From positions 3,466-67,465 of IMG/VR virus record IMGVR_UViG_3300009509_000706: a stretch of DNA of 64,000 nt; one strand, 5' to 3'. The stretch comes from a virus. The notes below the pieces were generated by a model. It saw nothing but the letters and a program-made list of their open reading frames with translations, was not told the DNA's origin and made no database searches. Positions 12,600 to 45,039 of the stretch are shown piece by piece (the stretch's first letter is position 1; each line of letters starts with the position of its first letter). Made by a program: the position numbers and the translations under genes.

Positions 12600-13226
12600 A
12601 TGATTGTCGGAAGCACGAATTATCGTGATGAGACTATGAGTACAGGTATTACTGTTCGCGTCTATCCCGTTTCTGATGATATTGTCTGGCGCATGATTCC
12701 AGCGCATGAACCAAAGCCGAAAGTGCCAGTTCACGAGATGGAAACAAAAACTGGCGCTCAGAAGCGCATAGCTAAAGAAGGTGATCCAGAATGGGCAGCA
12801 TATCAACACCAGCTTGAAGATTGGCAAGAATGCCAAGATCAATTGCGCAATGATGCACGGCTCGTGGCTTGTCTCGATGGTGAACAAAAAGACTTTGCAT
12901 TGCCAGAGAAAGTAACGCCTGGCGACTTGCCTTTCATCACACGGATCGCTATAGAAGACGGGCAGCTTGAATGGCCTGAATATCGTATCGGCCAATATGC
13001 CTTATGGCTGAAATCTTACGTCGTCAAATCACAAGATGACATGGAAAAGGTATTAAATGCTAGCTATCTGGCAGGCGGCATGGATGAGGGGCTGGTAGAA
13101 GCCATGAGGGATCGATTTCGCCGTGACTTACGAAGTGGTTTACTTGGGGAAGTGGCCCGTGCTGAAAATCAAGTACAGCCAGTTTTACCGGAAGGCGAAG
13201 TCGGCCCTGAAGGCCGGCCTGATTGA
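12600..13226 (+). CDS. Tail assembly chaperone (gpG-like)
   Basis: Between tail tube and tape measure; overlapped by a second-frame ORF. Confidence 0.65.
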   Translation: MIVGSTNYRDETMSTGITVRVYPVSDDIVWRMIPAHEPKPKVPVHEMETKTGAQKRIAKEGDPEWAAYQHQLEDWQECQDQLRNDARLVACLDGEQKDFALPEKVTPGDLPFITRIAIEDGQLEWPEYRIGQYALWLKSYVVKSQDDMEKVLNASYLAGGMDEGLVEAMRDRFRRDLRSGLLGEVARAENQVQPVLPEGEVGPEGRPD

Positions 13227-25403: not shown

Positions 25404-25666
25404 GAATAACTGAGGCCGAAGTATTTGCCGAAATCGCAGCACTGTTATCGGCTGGCAAAGAGCGGGAACTTGGAACATTTACCACAGCAGAGCTTGCAGA
25501 ATATTTAGGCTGCTGTGCACCAACGGCACTGGTCAGAATCAAAAAACTTCTGGCCGCTGGAATAATTGAGAATGCACGTATACCTATTACCGATCTAGTA
25601 GGTAGGCAAACAACGACATTTGGATTCAAGTACATCGGCAAGTCAGAGCCGCCTATTGACGACTAG
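25385..25666 (+). CDS. Winged-helix DNA-binding protein
   Basis: FTTAELAEYLGC...IKKLLAAGII. Confidence 0.7.
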   Translation: MATKRMRITEAEVFAEIAALLSAGKERELGTFTTAELAEYLGCCAPTALVRIKKLLAAGIIENARIPITDLVGRQTTTFGFKYIGKSEPPIDD

Positions 25667-25769: not shown

Positions 25770-25798
25770 TTGACAAATTCTGCATTTGGGTGTATAAT
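25770..25798 (+). promoter_or_regulatory. Consensus sigma70 promoter
   Basis: TTGACA-17-TATAAT; near copy of the minus-strand promoter at 44249-44277. Confidence 0.85.
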
Positions 25799-26867: not shown

Positions 26868-27128
26868 ATGGCAAAGGTACAAATTAAGATCGCCCTAGCG
26901 ATTGATTCAGAAGGCAATTGGGGAGCCAGCGGTTGGGGCAATCTCAAGGAATGTGCTAAAGATGAGGCGATGGCCGTTGCGCTGGAATGTCTGGACGAAT
27001 GGCCGGATACCGACGCGCGTTACTGGATTATACTTGAAAAAGAAGTGCCAGAAATTGAGACAAAAACAATCGGCGCTGACCAGGTTGTTATTGAGGTAGA
27101 GCGCAGAGCTATAGAAGGGAGAAACTGA
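26868..27128 (+). CDS. Hypothetical protein
   Basis: GGAAAGGA RBS. Confidence 0.6.
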   Translation: MAKVQIKIALAIDSEGNWGASGWGNLKECAKDEAMAVALECLDEWPDTDARYWIILEKEVPEIETKTIGADQVVIEVERRAIEGRN

Positions 27129-29931: not shown

Positions 29932-30183
29932 ATGACAATTGAATTGAACGAAAACACGTTTTATAGCAACGTCAAACTCGATAGGATACCAGAGATTTTG
30001 AGGGTAGCCAAAGAGTTGGATCACGAGGTTACGTTCGTCTATCCGGCGACCTTCACTTTTGGAGATCAGGTACACGAAAACCCACGTTGTGTAGCAGTTT
30101 ACCACACGAGGGGCAACCGCCGCAAGTTTGCAGAGGCGCTAATGCCTGCCGACATCTTGGCGACGATGCAAAGGGTAATGTAA
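29932..30183 (+). CDS. Hypothetical protein
   Basis: GGAG RBS. Confidence 0.55.
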   Translation: MTIELNENTFYSNVKLDRIPEILRVAKELDHEVTFVYPATFTFGDQVHENPRCVAVYHTRGNRRKFAEALMPADILATMQRVM

Positions 30184-32022: not shown

Positions 32023-32220
32023 TCAAGACGTTGTGATGTGGATTTCGGCATCGCTGCCGAAACTTGCACTGACTGTGGCCGCAAGGCCACTAGCCAAAAT
32101 GGCTTGATACCAAAATTCTGGATAGCCATCACAAGCAGCTTTGACTTTATCACAATTACTATCCCACTCTGCCCTTGTCTTACTTCCACGCATCAACTCA
32201 ACAACTTCTTGCTCTGTCAT
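32023..32220 (-). CDS. Hypothetical protein
   Basis: GAAAGGA RBS. Confidence 0.6.
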   Translation of the reverse strand: MTEQEVVELMRGSKTRAEWDSNCDKVKAACDGYPEFWYQAILASGLAATVSASFGSDAEIHITTS

Positions 32221-38888: not shown

Positions 38889-38936
38889 TTATAACCTTTC
38901 CTAAAACAAAATCACCTGCTCTGTTCGCATCTTGAA

Positions 38937-39464
38937 TCAATAGTTACTATTACTAATTCCATATTCATAACCGCATACTACGCAGAGCCATTCTTCGTCC
39001 CAACTCATCGGCATACCGCCAAATTCCATTGCCGCGCCAGGGTTATAATGGGCTTCTCCAATTGATAAGATAGCATGTTTGTCAGAATCACAGCGCGGGC
39101 ATTGATAGGGCCATTGCCAGAATTTTTCATGCCCGCACTCCACGCAGGAAAAGAATCTGTCTGGTAATTTGTCGGCTGACAGTGGCTCATTGCAATATGT
39201 ACGCCCAGGAGCATTCATGGTCAAGCTATCACAGCCGCTACACCAAGAATATTTGCCCAGTGCTTTGCCAAGTTGCTCTTCTTTGAGTTCCCCAATACCT
39301 TCAATTTCTACGTCAAGGCGAGTATTGCATTTGGGACACTGAATCGGCGTAGCTTCTATGCCATAATCAGGCCATGTATATCCGCAGGCTGCACACTCAT
39401 AATCAGAGCCGTGACCTATATCCAGTTCACTATATTGTGTGGAAGCATTGACAATCCTAAACAT
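38937..39464 (-). CDS. Multi-Zn-ribbon protein
   Basis: At least six CxxC motifs. Confidence 0.65.
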   Translation of the reverse strand: MFRIVNASTQYSELDIGHGSDYECAACGYTWPDYGIEATPIQCPKCNTRLDVEIEGIGELKEEQLGKALGKYSWCSGCDSLTMNAPGRTYCNEPLSADKLPDRFFSCVECGHEKFWQWPYQCPRCDSDKHAILSIGEAHYNPGAAMEFGGMPMSWDEEWLCVVCGYEYGISNSNY

Positions 39465-39508
39465 CGCCTTATCCTTTCCTAAAACAAAAAGTCCTTCTGT
39501 TCTATCAC

Positions 39509-39850
39509 CTAAGACGATCTTGCCTTGTCAACGATAGATATGACGCGCGGGTCTGCCGTATCAACAAGGTCTGGCATATATCCAGCAGCGATGAGCCGCC
39601 AGCATGGCCCACTCTGATTCTCTGGTTTCTGATAACAGTCAACCCAGTCGTCTGTCGTTTCTTTTATAACGTCAATGATCCAGATGTCCCCTTGACGCAG
39701 TGAGTTCCATTCTTGTACTGCTTCTTCAACAGTTGGGCCACTTTGATAATGCTCACAGTTTCCGCACCAGACTTTGTAACCGAGGGCATACTTGAATATC
39801 TCAAGGCTCATATTGTCACAAAAAATACAAGGGCTAAGAATTTCGCTCAT
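39509..39850 (-). CDS. Lar-like (restriction alleviation family) Zn-ribbon protein
   Basis: LSPCIFC...VWCGNC...EEAVQEWN. Confidence 0.6.
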   Translation of the reverse strand: MSEILSPCIFCDNMSLEIFKYALGYKVWCGNCEHYQSGPTVEEAVQEWNSLRQGDIWIIDVIKETTDDWVDCYQKPENQSGPCWRLIAAGYMPDLVDTADPRVISIVDKARSS

Positions 39851-39867
39851 CGCCTTATCCTTTTCTA

Positions 39868-40066
39868 AAACAAAATCACCCGCTTTGATCGCAGTTCCCC
39901 CAAACCATAAGGACTTTTGAGGGTAGCGACTCCCCCTTCTACTAAGGGGAACCGCGACCAAAACAGGTGATTCATTTTGCGCCTTATGGTATTTACAGCT
40001 TCCATTGTCAGGTCGCCATCCCGACTGCTGTAAGTTCATTTTATCACGTTTCGCCAGAATTGTCAA
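39868..40066 (-). ncRNA. C4/CI-like antisense switch B (promoter, target boxes, long stem)
   Basis: TTGACA-17-TAAAAT; about 27-bp stem 39874-39900/39946-39972; leader boxes complementary to stem-enclosed sequences. Confidence 0.65.
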
Positions 40067-40226
40067 GTAAGTATTTCTTTGAGAGCAATTTTCCATTGAG
40101 CTTGACAATGATTTCTGATATTGAGCAATCTTCTGGCGTTTCATCTGGTGCTGCTGCCCATGAACCTTCGAGCCAGTATAATAGGTCAATGGCTTGCTTG
40201 TTAGTAAGATAGATTGTTATGCCCAT
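40044..40226 (-). CDS. Hypothetical protein flanked by direct repeats
   Basis: GAGGTG RBS; TCGCCAGAATTGTCAAG at both ends. Confidence 0.55.
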   Translation of the reverse strand: MGITIYLTNKQAIDLLYWLEGSWAAAPDETPEDCSISEIIVKLNGKLLSKKYLLDNSGET

Positions 40227-40248
40227 TTGCCACACCTCGCCAGAATTG

Positions 40249-41193
40249 TCAAGCAACTGCCCTCGCCACTTTCATAAAGCCCCAAAAGTCATCAACCGAG
40301 CCGCCATACCTATAAAAAAATTCGTCGGCCTTGACCGGCAGATTGACGACGCGCCCGCGTCCATCAAATAGTTTTGCCAGTCGAAAAGCCGACTCTATAG
40401 CATCTGGGTCGAGGGCTACGTAAACGACCTTTGTGGCCTTGAACTCATTTAGCCAGCTTCTCTTGAAAGAACGCTGACTCATGATTCCACAGTTTGGGAT
40501 TCCATGTTGTGCCAAGACAATGCTCTTTTTCTCGCCCTCTACTACCACGGGATCAGGCCATTCGTTAATCAAATCGAGATTGAATAGTGCAACTGACAAG
40601 CCTGCCATGTGGGGCCGATATTTGTCTCCCCCATTAGCGCCCTTGATTCTGTGTCGGATATTGAGCAATTGACCGCCGTTTACTACGGGAATAGTATAGC
40701 TTGCTCTCCCATCATAGTCTGTTGGGCAGCGCGGGCAGTAGCCGAGATTGTAGCGGGCAATACTGCCGTCGTCAATGCCCTCGTTGTGCCACCATTCCCG
40801 CGCTTCTGGCATTCTATCTAGCAGGCGATTATAAGCAATGTGATCCTGGCAACGAGCCATCCGCTCAAGCGCATCGAGCCGTCGTTCGTGTTCTCGTTGC
40901 TTGCGCTCTAGCGCCTTGACTCTGGCCTCAAGCCTTACCTGTTGCAATTTTTCTGGTGACAGGCCAGCATCAGGCCAAAGGTCTTTTGGCTCAAGTCCCA
41001 ACGCAGCCACGATAGCGTCAAAGTCGCAACCTGAGAAGCAATGGAGTAGCACCTGGCCTTGATCGCCGATGCCAATGGATAGAGATGGGTTATGATCGTC
41101 GTGTGCTGGGCAGCGGGCAAGCCACTTGTCTAGGCCATGTGATTTGACTGCTTCGAGTAACGATAGGACAAGTTCAAGAGACTGCATAGTCAT
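40249..41193 (-). CDS. DNA primase (CHC2 Zn finger plus TOPRIM)
   Basis: CPAHDDHNPSL..HCFSGC, VVVEGEKK, ALDPD. Confidence 0.85.
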   Translation of the reverse strand: MTMQSLELVLSLLEAVKSHGLDKWLARCPAHDDHNPSLSIGIGDQGQVLLHCFSGCDFDAIVAALGLEPKDLWPDAGLSPEKLQQVRLEARVKALERKQREHERRLDALERMARCQDHIAYNRLLDRMPEAREWWHNEGIDDGSIARYNLGYCPRCPTDYDGRASYTIPVVNGGQLLNIRHRIKGANGGDKYRPHMAGLSVALFNLDLINEWPDPVVVEGEKKSIVLAQHGIPNCGIMSQRSFKRSWLNEFKATKVVYVALDPDAIESAFRLAKLFDGRGRVVNLPVKADEFFYRYGGSVDDFWGFMKVARAVA

Positions 41194-41311
41194 GTATGCC
41201 CTCGCAATTGGCGCACTGATAAACTTCGTGCCTTGCGCCATTTTCTGCTATGTATTCATACAAAAACGATAGAAATGTATAGGCCTCACAGTGTGTACAG
41301 TAAGAGTGCAT
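41174..41311 (-). CDS. Small Zn-ribbon protein
   Basis: CTHC...CANC; GAGGAG RBS. Confidence 0.5.
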   Translation of the reverse strand: MHSYCTHCEAYTFLSFLYEYIAENGARHEVYQCANCEGIHDYAVS

Positions 41312-41321
41312 TGTTTGCTCC

Positions 41322-41624
41322 TCAAAACAAAAGCTCTTGCATTTTGTCACCATCGGCAAAGCCCGCGCCATGAATAGGGCAGTCGGGATTTGAAATCGGG
41401 TCAGGATTGCAATTGAGAAAATCTGCGCAAATGCAGCGAGCCTCTGTCATCCCTTTTTTGTTATGAAATAATGTCGGCATGGCTTCTGATTGCCAGTACC
41501 AATCTATGAGAGTCACCCAATCGCACTCAGTACAATAATAGAACGTGATAAGCAACACCCTATTATTTACTGTAGCCTCAGTTACGGTTTTTTCGGCGTC
41601 TGCGCCACATTCTTGGCAATACAT
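41322..41624 (-). CDS. Cys-rich hypothetical protein
   Basis: CQEC, CTEC, CIC...CPIHG. Confidence 0.6.
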   Translation of the reverse strand: MYCQECGADAEKTVTEATVNNRVLLITFYYCTECDWVTLIDWYWQSEAMPTLFHNKKGMTEARCICADFLNCNPDPISNPDCPIHGAGFADGDKMQELLF

Positions 41625-41640
41625 CGTCTTATCCTTTCCT

Positions 41641-41837
41641 AAACAAAAGCCCTAATGTGCTATCACCTGAGCGGTATCGGCGGCAAAGGTTTTTTGTGCT
41701 ATACGTGACGCTCCGTATAGCCCGTTACCGCCCATGTGATAGTCCACAAGGGCTTTTCCTTACCTTTGCCTAACTGTTAAAATAGGGGCGTCACTCCCTA
41801 CTAACTCCATTCTACCACGTTTCGCCAGAATTGTCAA
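41641..41837 (-). ncRNA. C4/CI-like antisense switch A
   Basis: TTGACA-17-TAGAAT; long stem 41645-41757; boxes GUGACGC and GGCAAAGGU complementary to enclosed sequences. Confidence 0.7.
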
Positions 41838-44076
41838 GCGGAATACTGTCATTTGCAGACTGCGCTTCCGCCCAGGCAAACAAATCGAGGGAATTTACAT
41901 CGCGCTCGACCATTTGCAGATTCTTGACGGCTACGTTGAAATAACTTTGCTTCAATTCTATGCCGATCCCCTTGCGTCCCATCTTGACGGCCTGGTAAAT
42001 CTCTGAGCCAATCCCGGCGAAGGGCGAAAGGATCGTTTCGCCAGGATTGCTCCAAAGCGCGATACAGCGTTCAATTGTACCAAGTTGCAGGGGGCAGATA
42101 TGCTTGTCATCATCCTCGGCGCGGGCAGTCGTATATTGTAGGGTATCAGTTTCTCTGATTCCCCACCAAATCGGATGCGCCCATTCGATCCATTGATCCC
42201 GTGTTAACTCTCCGTTGGCTACGGGATTGATCGGCGTTTGATTCTCGCCAGGTTTTTTGAAAATCAGGATATAATCGCCAATCGCTGGCCTTGACCACGA
42301 GCTGTCTTTTTCCATTTGGACAAAAAGAAGCGCCTTGCTATGCGTGCGAATGGCCTGTGCTTGCGGATTCTTATCTATCGTGACTCTGCCGTGATAAATC
42401 CATCCGCGATCCTCAAAGGCAGCGATGACTTTGCCAGGGAAATCTTTAAGGCCAATATAGCCATCCTTGCTGAGCAGAGCAGGTACATCAGCAGTATGGA
42501 CGGCGCAGATACGTCCAGGTCGCGTTACCCGCAGTAAATGATCAATGATATAGCCAAAGTGGATAAAGAAATCATCCGCATTGGCAGAATTACCCAAGTC
42601 ACGCTCCGTAGGACTATATGTATACAAATCCATAAAAGGCGGACTGAATACGCTAAAATCAATGCTGTCAGTCTTGATTTCTGCCAGACGCTCTACAGAA
42701 TCACCCAGCATCAAAGTCCAATCCTTGCCCTTGATGGTATCAACGTTATATGTTTCCCCACCATCATTTTGTTCCGCCAGCTCATCTCTTTCAAAAGCCT
42801 GTACATTTTCGATGAGTTTAGTTGCCATAGTATTTGCCTGCTCCTCTTTTCTCATAATATTAGTGTAAATCTCTTGTTCTACATCTCCGAGTACAATGTG
42901 AACATTGACCTCTTCTTTTTGCCCGAACCTGTAACAACGACGGATGGCCTGATAGTATGCTTCCCAGCTATCACTCAAGCCGACGAATATCATATTGTGG
43001 CAATTCTGGAAATTCATACCGAAGCCAGCGATCTTCGTTTTAGTAACCAAGACTCTTATAGTGCCATTCTGGAAGTTTTCTAACGCCTCAATCTTCGCAT
43101 CAAGGCTATCACTGCCTTGTACCTCTACAGCATCATGTATGGCTTTAGCCAGCGCCGCACTTTCATCATTCAGACCGCACCAAACGATCCATTGTTCGCT
43201 AGAATTATTGACGATTTCAGCAGCAGCAGAGACTCTATCTCCTATGGTTTCGCGTCTTATTTGTCGCCTATGCCCTATGCCCTTGAGACCAGTAAAAAAC
43301 AACTGGTCTTCTGGGACATAATCTGTGGGGACGAATAGTGAAAAGATATTTAGTGGGGGAAGTACGAATCCGTCATCGTCATAGCCGAGATCGGACGGCT
43401 TGCGTACTGACATGCCCCAACTGGCGAGCCAACGGTAAAATGCTTCTTCAGCATGGCCGCGCAATCGCCAGCCTTTGTCATCATGTACGAAAAAGGCGGC
43501 AAGCATATCGGCTCTGGTCATCACGCCTAGAAATTCGGCATGGTTGGCAATCTCTGCAATGTCATTCGGGGCTGGCGTTGCTGTACAACAGAGTCTTAGT
43601 TGCACATCAGAAAACATATCCGTTAGCTTGCGCCGCGTCTTGCCGTCAAGCCCTTTCAAAATCGAGCTTTCATCTAATATTACCGCGCCGAAGGCGGCAG
43701 GATTAAATCGCTCGATCATTTCATAATTGGTTATATAGATTTGCGATGGGCTATTATCCGCCTGTTCCTGGCTGCGTACATAATAGACTTGCAGATCAAT
43801 TTTCTGCGCCTCTCTTACCGTTTGTTTGGCTACTGACAAGGGGGCAATAATCAATGTTCTTTTGCCAGATAACCTGGCCCATTCCAGTTGCATGAATGTC
43901 TTCCCCAGGCCAGTATCAGCAAATATCGCCGCCCGCCCCTTGCGCAGCGCCCAGATAGTCAAATCCTTTTGGAAGTCAAAAAGTAGCCTGTGTACTTCAG
44001 ATTGTGGCGCAGAAATGCCGCACGTTTTTGCTTTGATACATTTTGTTTTCAAGAAGGCTTGATAATTCATGCTCAT
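41812..44076 (-). CDS. SNF2-like helicase fused to an N4/N6 DNA methyltransferase
   Basis: DTGLGKT, LDESS, TATPAPN, QAIRRCYRFG; VFSPPF and LSPFAGIGS. Confidence 0.9.
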   Translation of the reverse strand: MSMNYQAFLKTKCIKAKTCGISAPQSEVHRLLFDFQKDLTIWALRKGRAAIFADTGLGKTFMQLEWARLSGKRTLIIAPLSVAKQTVREAQKIDLQVYYVRSQEQADNSPSQIYITNYEMIERFNPAAFGAVILDESSILKGLDGKTRRKLTDMFSDVQLRLCCTATPAPNDIAEIANHAEFLGVMTRADMLAAFFVHDDKGWRLRGHAEEAFYRWLASWGMSVRKPSDLGYDDDGFVLPPLNIFSLFVPTDYVPEDQLFFTGLKGIGHRRQIRRETIGDRVSAAAEIVNNSSEQWIVWCGLNDESAALAKAIHDAVEVQGSDSLDAKIEALENFQNGTIRVLVTKTKIAGFGMNFQNCHNMIFVGLSDSWEAYYQAIRRCYRFGQKEEVNVHIVLGDVEQEIYTNIMRKEEQANTMATKLIENVQAFERDELAEQNDGGETYNVDTIKGKDWTLMLGDSVERLAEIKTDSIDFSVFSPPFMDLYTYSPTERDLGNSANADDFFIHFGYIIDHLLRVTRPGRICAVHTADVPALLSKDGYIGLKDFPGKVIAAFEDRGWIYHGRVTIDKNPQAQAIRTHSKALLFVQMEKDSSWSRPAIGDYILIFKKPGENQTPINPVANGELTRDQWIEWAHPIWWGIRETDTLQYTTARAEDDDKHICPLQLGTIERCIALWSNPGETILSPFAGIGSEIYQAVKMGRKGIGIELKQSYFNVAVKNLQMVERDVNSLDLFAWAEAQSANDSIPLDNSGETW

Positions 44077-44104
44077 TTCTCCATTCTTATATTACTCTAG
44101 TTGT

Positions 44105-44277
44105 AAAATAAAAGGCCCTGATCCCCATGCCCGTTGCCCGCTTTGTTGTTAAAATCCACTCTCGCTGCCAGGCAAGAATGCGGCAAAACGGGCCGGGGGA
44201 TCAAGGCCCTCGGCTAAAACCTATATTCATTCTTGCCTGGCATTCTCTATTATACACCCAAACACAAAATCTGTCAA
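44105..44277 (-). ncRNA. Antisense/attenuator switch C upstream of the helicase-MTase
   Basis: TTGACA-17-TATAAT; 15-nt leader box exactly complementary to a sequence inside the long stem 44113-44210, which ends in a U run. Confidence 0.65.
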
Positions 44278-44427
44278 GCCCCAATCTGTGCTGCATATTC
44301 ACGGCGCAACGCCTCAAGAATCCTGGTCGCTGTGCTTGCCCCGCAAGCCTCAACCTCGGACAGTGCGGCCTCAAGCTCTACCAGGTCAAAGTCATCTGGA
44401 ATGAGCAATGTTAGAATCTCGCCCATA

Positions 44428-45039
44428 TTACTCCCAATTCACCCAGGCCCTAGTAGCCTCAATAATGGTGTCAATCTGTTTCAGCGCATTACCATTGCAC
44501 CAAATCTCTAGCCGCCCTTCTTCGTAATAAACAATGCCCTTTGCTCTGCCGTCATTGGGCGGCGGCAACTGCGGCTTGTGAATCATCTTGCGTAAAGTGC
44601 GAGCCGACAATCCTTCTTGCTCTGCCTTGTCAAGCCACTCCATTTGCTGTTCTACTGGAAGTGGGGCGACGGCCCGATGGTGGTCAAAGGTCAGAGTTTC
44701 CAGCCGCCTTACTTCCGGTGCTACTTTGCGGGCAACCCATTGGACATTGGCCGCTGTTCCGCTTGAATAGTCAGAAGCCTCTAGCGCCTGAGTATATGCT
44801 TCTCCGAATCTGCCCTGCATATAGTTCAGCAAATCTCCAATAGCAAGCTGTATAATATTGTGAGCAGCCTTAAGTGTTGTTACAGCATTGTTGCAAGTAT
44901 CAAAGTCTGGTTTTCCTTCGATTTCAAGGCCAGCCTTGCCGAAGCGAAAAGGGCCGACGCGGATGAGGTAAGAATCGTTGCTTATAGCAGAATCACTTTT
45001 AGATAGTACGATTTCGCCGTTGTTGTCTATGATGTCCAC
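44428..45039 (-). CDS. LmbU-like putative DNA-binding protein
   Basis: LAIGDLL....FGEAY, LTFDHHRAVA, WLDKAEQEGLSARTLR. Confidence 0.55.
   Translation of the reverse strand: MDIIDNNGEIVLSKSDSAISNDSYLIRVGPFRFGKAGLEIEGKPDFDTCNNAVTTLKAAHNIIQLAIGDLLNYMQGRFGEAYTQALEASDYSSGTAANVQWVARKVAPEVRRLETLTFDHHRAVAPLPVEQQMEWLDKAEQEGLSARTLRKMIHKPQLPPPNDGRAKGIVYYEEGRLEIWCNGNALKQIDTIIEATRAWVNWE

Follow-up and report, generated by a model that had tools for sequence, protein, structure and literature searches.

The locus lies in IMGVR_UViG_3300009509_000706, a 67,465-bp IMG/VR virus record with direct terminal repeats, of which the window analysed here, 64,000 nt in length, covers most. The phage is uncultured, and the DNA runs containing its sequence are, by label, marine sediment metagenomes. 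Three leader elements stand on the minus strand of the window, each directly before genes of the replication module: element C precedes an SNF2 helicase-methylase, element A a zinc-ribbon-like ORF and a DNA primase, and element B a Lar-like ORF, an initiator and DnaB (Table 1). Behind both A and B, small Cys-rich zinc-ribbon-like ORFs come first and the enzyme genes after them. No relatives of the primase were found in the bacterial genome collection searched, and the phage collection held no DNA similarity match for 39000-45000 in a near search or for 41600-41860 in a distant search. The initial annotation had described a phage with no CI-type peptidase repressor, which agrees with the result for the three models applied here (S24 peptidase, tyrosine integrase and HTH_3), none of which was matched in the 67-kb record, itself 60% complete by CheckV.

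Table 1. Element A, its paralogues and the neighbouring genes (positions in the window)
Feature	Coordinates	Strand	Remarks
Paralogue C	44105..44277	-	perfect promoter; 102-nt stem-loop and U tract before SNF2 helicase-methylase
SNF2 helicase-methylase ORF, 754 aa	stop codon 41814-41812	-	directly upstream of element A
Sigma-70-type promoter of A	41809..41837	-	-35 TTGACA 41837-41832; -10 TAGAAT 41814-41809
Leader hairpin UAGGG/CCCUA	41783..41800	-	presents box a
Box a, GUGACGC, 7 nt	41788..41794	-	leader hairpin loop; exact complement of a'
Box b, GGCAAAGGU, 9 nt	41762..41770	-	single-stranded; exact complement of b'
Long stem-loop, 113 nt, AAAAGCCC to GGGCUUUU	41645..41757	-	read as intrinsic terminator
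Apical hairpin CUAUAC/GUAUAG	41699..41720	-	10-nt loop
Anti-box a', GCGUCAC	41705..41711	-	within apical hairpin loop
Anti-box b', ACCUUUGCC	41682..41690	-	junction strand, directly 5' of descending arm of long stem
U tract, UUUUGUUU	41641..41648	-	
Ribosome site AGGAAAGGA and start codon	41622..41640	-	ribosome site 41640-41632; ATG 41624 of first gated gene
Cys-rich ORF, 100 aa, zinc-ribbon-like	41322..41624	-	first gene after element A; without family match
DNA primase, 330 aa	40249..41241	-	phrog_47, 5.8e-19; weak CHC2 zinc finger match
Paralogue B	39850..40066	-	promoter as in A; 102-nt stem-loop and U tract before Lar-like ORF
Lar-like ORF, 113 aa	39509-39850	-	first gene after element B
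Multi-ribbon ORF, 175 aa	38937-39464	-	after Lar-like ORF behind B

Read directly on the minus strand, element A holds every part of the switch that the initial annotation had placed there, at the same coordinates. Its promoter is near consensus (17-nt spacer, TG before the -10, score 11/12), the helicase-methylase stop codon falls within the -10, and the leader RNA driven from it is ~160 nt long. Two short boxes come first in this RNA, one in a hairpin loop and one single-stranded, and 4 nt past box b begins the long stem, at whose apex lie the exact complements of both. The 191-nt fold of the element has an energy of -75.3 kcal/mol (z = -6.73), with 0/200 shuffles as stable, and the long stem-loop alone reaches -58.4 kcal/mol, compared with -52.8 for its antisense. 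The MFE structure contains two weak pairs that close part of the leader loop around box a, at an opening cost of only 0.5 kcal/mol; after opening costs the net hybridisation energies of the two pairings are -5.5 (a) and -11.6 kcal/mol (b).

When exact Watson-Crick runs between leader and hairpin were counted, the 9-nt run of element A was reached by 31/2000 dinucleotide shuffles of the leader and the 9+7 sum by 7/2000; with G-U pairs allowed, the top-two score was reached by 72/1000 shuffles, a weak result. The evidence against chance for element A taken alone is moderate (p about 0.004-0.07 by test), and the weight against chance comes from recurrence of the architecture, not from this element by itself.

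Candidate elements were chosen by promoter score and fold only, among leaders behind strong promoters, a procedure whose preference for strong folds may slightly favour leaders that pair with their own hairpin (e.g. L033). The two-box architecture was found in 12 elements, comprising A, its window paralogues B and C, and nine from related phage contigs. Four of the 23 strong-promoter leaders carry it (A, B, C and L005, the last from a contig with a 62%-identical primase), as do 6/9 leaders from metagenome relatives (L027, L031, L033, L035 and two in L038) and two of the 16 leaders of a complete 99.9-kb relative (L071 and L076). Promoters of the elements are close to the E. coli consensus, and every element directly precedes a gene, with the ribosome site 8-12 nt past the U tract. 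Beyond this the sequences have almost nothing in common across the family, and the boxes are private to each element: in B, UGGCGAC (box a) pairs with GUCGCUA and ACCAUAAGG (box b) with CCUUAUGGU, and in C a single 15-nt box, UGCCAGGCAAGAAUG, pairs with CAUUCUUGCCUGGCA. For element A itself, blastn of the elements against all fetched loci found no sequence homologue, only shared ends being matched.

Usually one box lies in the leader hairpin loop and its partner in the apical hairpin loop, while the second box, unpaired and placed just ahead of the stem base, is matched by a segment of the apical junction strand. A, B, L027a, L071 and L076 arrange their boxes as a b a' b', and loop complementarity points to this arrangement in L035 and L038a too; a nested order (a b b' a') is seen in L005, L031, L033 and L038b. 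The structure is strand-specific: the sense-strand fold is the more stable in 10/10 elements, with 47 G-U pairs against 13 in the antisense folds. In most elements the anti-boxes of the finished stem-loop can be opened at a cost of 0.3-4.7 kcal/mol, and all box pairs have a favourable net energy, from -2.5 to -18.4 kcal/mol.

Pooled and all-against-all statistics, which cover the first ten elements, separate cognate pairings from chance. The pooled sum of the top two Watson-Crick runs is 153, against 111.8 +/- 4.4 in shuffled leaders (z = 9.3; 0/2000). The longest leader-hairpin run averages 9.4 nt for cognate pairs and 5.9 nt for non-cognate ones (n=90, max 8); eight of the ten cognate runs are longer than all non-cognate runs, and 0/100,000 permutations matched the cognate sum. 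Taken singly several elements are weak, the top-two sum being reached in 710/2000 shuffles for L005, 118/2000 for L031, 89/2000 for L038b and 393/2000 for L071, and the top-two score with G-U pairs allowed in 129/1000 for B, 132/1000 for L031, 128/1000 for L038a and 208/1000 for L038b. A gapped duplex-energy matrix, which is noisy, also gave a lower cognate mean (3/20,000 permutations), with the cognate pairs of A and B not first in it, ranking 6th to 8th. In the 200 nt downstream of the ten elements (44 nt for L031), complementarity to the own hairpin is at background, with no second target there.

The boxes also covary. Where homologues can be aligned, the b/b' pair GCGAUAGUC/GACUAUCGC of L035 corresponds to GCGACAGUC/GACUGUCGC in L038a, a U-A to C-G exchange, and paired changes occur in the long stems and apical hairpins of these two elements as well. 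L027a and L076 have the apex loop CCGCCA and the linker CAAGAC in common and differ in their b/b' pairs. A contig from run X4 contains a diverged copy of B, with 23 changed letters and 18 gaps over 203 nt, in which, among the differences listed, box b becomes ACCAGUAGG and b' becomes CCUACUG while 7 bases stay complementary. Contigs identical to the window over most of A (41533-41753 in X2; 41576-41835 in X4) offered no variation. The earlier proposal of several orthogonal switches in series holds in that C, A and B lie on one strand with boxes that do not cross-match, which would give each gate its own address.

The 23-nt promoter sequence of A (41816-41838, minus strand) recurs before B at 40045-40067 and, with 3 mismatches, at 40231-40253 on the same strand, where a third, degenerate copy with a poor -10 overlaps the primase stop codon. 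The copies of A and B are also coding: read in frame, both give the C-terminal peptide LDNSGET, in A of the 754-aa helicase-methylase (...PLDNSGETW*) and in B of a 60-aa ORF, 40226-40044 (...LLDNSGET*). The start of the duplicated cassette is therefore within coding sequence of the gene upstream. Half-copies consisting of the 3' arm, U tract and ribosome site lie before other genes at 39463-39513 and 38892-38929 (minus strand) and at 2921-2959 in L027; each complements the 5' arm of the full-length element lying upstream, with which it could form a duplex. The positional counterpart of A in L027 (2808-2967), where the promoter lies inside a decayed copy with the 3' arm only, was not counted as an element.

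Folding of successive transcripts in silico gave two states. When transcripts were truncated directly behind the anti-box, the MFE structure contained the box helix in 9/10 elements, and at full length the terminator fold is favoured over the box helix by 0 to 20.6 kcal/mol. The folding program cannot draw pseudoknots, and the 0/8 base pairs obtained in the two-state folding are partly built in. For element A an intrinsic terminator and an alternative fold are both predicted, their proposed mutual exclusion resting on topology and a steric argument and not on shared nucleotides: a linker of 4 nt would be too short to reach along a stem with 43 predicted pairs, so that pairing in cis and a complete terminator probably could not coexist. 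The change-over in A comes 19 nt after b' and 18 nt before the end of the U tract; at such a late point the choice would fall while the polymerase sits at the terminator.

We give about an even chance to a reading in which element A is a regulatory leader RNA, a terminator/antiterminator switch that is fed back in trans by its own terminated RNA. From the anatomy and the folding we infer termination at the long stem, an antiterminator role for box pairing and action in trans. In the nascent leader, with the descending arm still to be transcribed, boxes a and b would find a' and b' at the apex, and this pairing would keep the ascending arm off its partner, acting as an antiterminator and allowing read-through into the genes. 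Once the descending arm is transcribed, the far more stable 113-nt stem with its U tract could form and transcription would stop; through this choice between two folds A would gate the operon of the zinc-ribbon ORF and primase. The terminated RNA would leave all four segments exposed, a' and b' as well as the two boxes of its own leader. As it accumulated, perhaps after processing, it could pair in trans with the boxes of nascent leaders and block the cis antiterminator, which would raise termination and provide operon-specific negative feedback or a timer. Possibly such feedback also gives immunity between related phages; that role is speculation, and an early-gene shut-off timer in lytic growth fits equally well. 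The trans step is suggested by the exposed apex, the private codes of the tandem units, the re-coding of a box in the variant of B and the precedent of P4. Since the terminated RNA would carry boxes and anti-boxes together, self-association or titration could blunt its action in trans unless it is processed.

Element A might instead be a purely cis terminator/antiterminator attenuator, with no RNA acting in trans and with read-through fixed by the box pairing or varying with conditions, an account that we consider rather improbable. The speed of transcription could serve as its input, as could temperature, an unknown protein, or the ribosomes that terminate on the upstream ORF 12 nt ahead of the leader hairpin; with that stop inside the -10, transcripts arriving from promoter C would bring terminating ribosomes beside box a. 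The two-state folding in silico speaks for such an attenuator, and tandem elements on one long transcript would need distinct boxes against misfolding, which would yield orthogonality without any trans action. However, no sensor element is conserved, the sequences being wholly different between elements; the anti-boxes stay open to pairing once the terminator fold is complete, a property for which a device acting in cis alone has no use; and the re-coding of boxes in close variants resembles that of specificity determinants.

It is unlikely that the unit is instead a small-RNA gene, whose ~160-nt terminated RNA would act on other phage or host messages while the boxes mask or fold it and downstream expression is leakage. 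A strong promoter and a terminator do make up such a unit, other promoter-terminator mini-units occur in this phage, and GGCAAAGGU recurs at 26870-26878 (plus strand), where it adjoins the ATG of an 86-aa ORF on its 3' side; this ORF has a good ribosome site. This is nevertheless one 9-nt site, where we estimate ~0.5 to be expected by chance over both strands; no site pairs with a', and for B and C nothing similar occurs close to a start codon. Their apices match elsewhere over 13 nt at 29996-30008 (plus strand) for B and 11 nt at 12823-12833 for C, and another 13-nt match falls inside a 284-aa ORF. The constant position directly before a gene, with the ribosome site at its short distance past the U tract, likewise speaks against a free-standing small-RNA gene. 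The 86-aa ORF stands just before a ParM-like gene, and the site at its start (26868-26878, plus strand) may be a trans target of the b' of A, or the match may be chance. Least probable is that the long stem simply terminates the upstream gene and that transcription restarts from a promoter behind it, with box complementarity as chance or a leftover of duplication: the long stem does come after the helicase-methylase ORF and A alone reaches only the p values given above, but the promoter lies upstream of the terminator and not downstream, and 12 elements have covarying boxes whose pairing fails in non-cognate and downstream controls.

To set the switch reading of element A against known systems, we turned to the C4 and CI RNAs to which the initial annotation had likened it. 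The likeness stands for the layout, which is that of P1 immI and of the P4 leader; it does not extend to an Rfam match or to a downstream target. The C4 model (RF01695, threshold 45 bits) gave no gathering-score match in the window and nothing at E <= 10 either, whether over 41500-41950, over 39400-44400 or over all 67 kb of the record, and the isrK model (RF01394, threshold 50 bits) nothing at E <= 10 in the record. As positive controls for the covariance models, C4 scored 74.9 bits in P4 and 68.8 bits in P1, and isrK 60.8 bits in P4. The Rfam/Infernal search that had been proposed as a check thus places the element in no family; the other matches (a microRNA-precursor, a snoRNA and a Bacillus antisense-RNA model) are chance, all far under threshold. 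Element A may work like P1 C4 or P4 CI, its membership of their family not being demonstrable.

In the P1 record AF234172 the order is promoter, a1 (7 nt), b1 (8 nt), C4 RNA (77 nt), a2, b2 and icd. C4 RNA is processed by RNase P, and P1 and P7 differ in c4. Element A corresponds to the P1/P7 immI arrangement in its promoter, its two short boxes (7 and 9 nt, against 7 and 8 nt in P1) and the stem-closed RNA that follows, which exposes the complement of one upstream box in a hairpin loop and that of the other in a junction strand; a single transcript carries the whole. The nested order of boxes found in P1 is also that of L005, L031, L033 and L038b. P1 differs in having a second pair, a2/b2, over the icd ribosome site, and none lies downstream of the first ten elements, which excludes a P1-type block of the ribosome site in these; around the ribosome site A and B hardly differ, whereas their boxes do. 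C4 is 77 nt long with a 17-bp closing stem, whereas the stem-loop of A measures 113 nt; the C4 copy in P4 ends without a U tract, whereas element A ends in one; and P1 gates icd-ant, whereas the genes gated here are those of replication (helicase-methylase, primase, initiator and DnaB).

In P4 (X51522) an isrK-like leader has its box, UUCACAGG, immediately ahead of a terminator hairpin; the CI RNA, ~100 nt further on, has the complement of this box in its loop, CCUGUGAA. According to passages on P4 in two publications, CI RNA is processed from the leader and pairs with seqA and seqC, causing premature termination, and the replication genes, primase included, are kept silent through that termination (PMC4825925; PMC3632133). 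Element A resembles this arrangement in that its leader box adjoins a predicted intrinsic terminator, complements an exposed loop of a stem-closed RNA from the same transcript, and has a replication gene, the primase, downstream. Briani reportedly found in 2000 that CI and seqA are required for termination at t1. The terminator and CI RNA of P4 are separate, however, ~100 nt apart, whereas here the two are fused into one structure, and P4 has the extra downstream target seqC, whereas A is without a seqC-like site.

IsrK of the Salmonella Gifsy-1 prophage offers a further comparison. A passage on this RNA describes a short terminated RNA and a read-through mRNA from one promoter, the short form acting in trans on the long form to activate translation of the downstream ORF (PMC4825925). 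A terminated short RNA and a read-through mRNA from one promoter would be common to both systems. The effect in IsrK is on translation, whereas here the boxes precede the terminator, and A and B, with their different boxes, have almost the same sequence around the ribosome site.

In the rep genes of pT181 and pIP501, an antisense RNA tips the nascent leader from an antiterminator to a terminator fold. The choice between antiterminator and terminator, and small-RNA feedback on replication functions, would be shared with element A. The plasmid regulators are countertranscripts from the opposite strand, whereas the structure here is specific to the sense strand, and no promoter-like site for a countertranscript was found on the plus strand between 41472 and 43020. 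In the literature searched we found no description of a C4-like leader that is embedded in a terminator and has upstream targets only.

More tentatively, and with less than an even chance of being right, we propose that these leaders are modular, quickly re-codable, self-addressed RNA gates, in which each terminated RNA represses the read-through of its own operon in trans. If so, three serial private addresses would time or silence the whole replication module without a repressor protein, and swaps of box pairs would create heteroimmune lineages among related phages, as with c4 of P1 and P7. RNA-only, address-coded control of replication genes would then extend beyond P1, P4 and N15 to a broader device missed by current RNA family models, a compact one in which regulatory RNA and terminator are one structure. 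Three orthogonal copies and natural re-coding of boxes would amount to a ready set of RNA gates that do not cross-talk, and would offer a way, open to testing, by which uncultured phages could achieve timing or immunity without a protein.

Wider scans contributed little to the count of elements. A long-stem terminator scan was too noisy and missed element A itself, and of the 20 loci that the tail motif picked out among viral contigs almost all are chance; only L044 looks leader-like, and it was not counted. On this unrelated viral contig (~14040-14290) a promoter and leader have a short terminator downstream, and a hairpin loop and a second stretch are complementary to segments upstream of that terminator, which may be another such family. 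Within the window, other strong promoters at 32026 (minus strand) and at 25656 and 25770 (plus strand) each have a clean terminator ~70-110 nt or less behind them; they resemble small-RNA units and are without the two-box architecture. The promoter at 25770 and that of element C have 27/31 bases in common.
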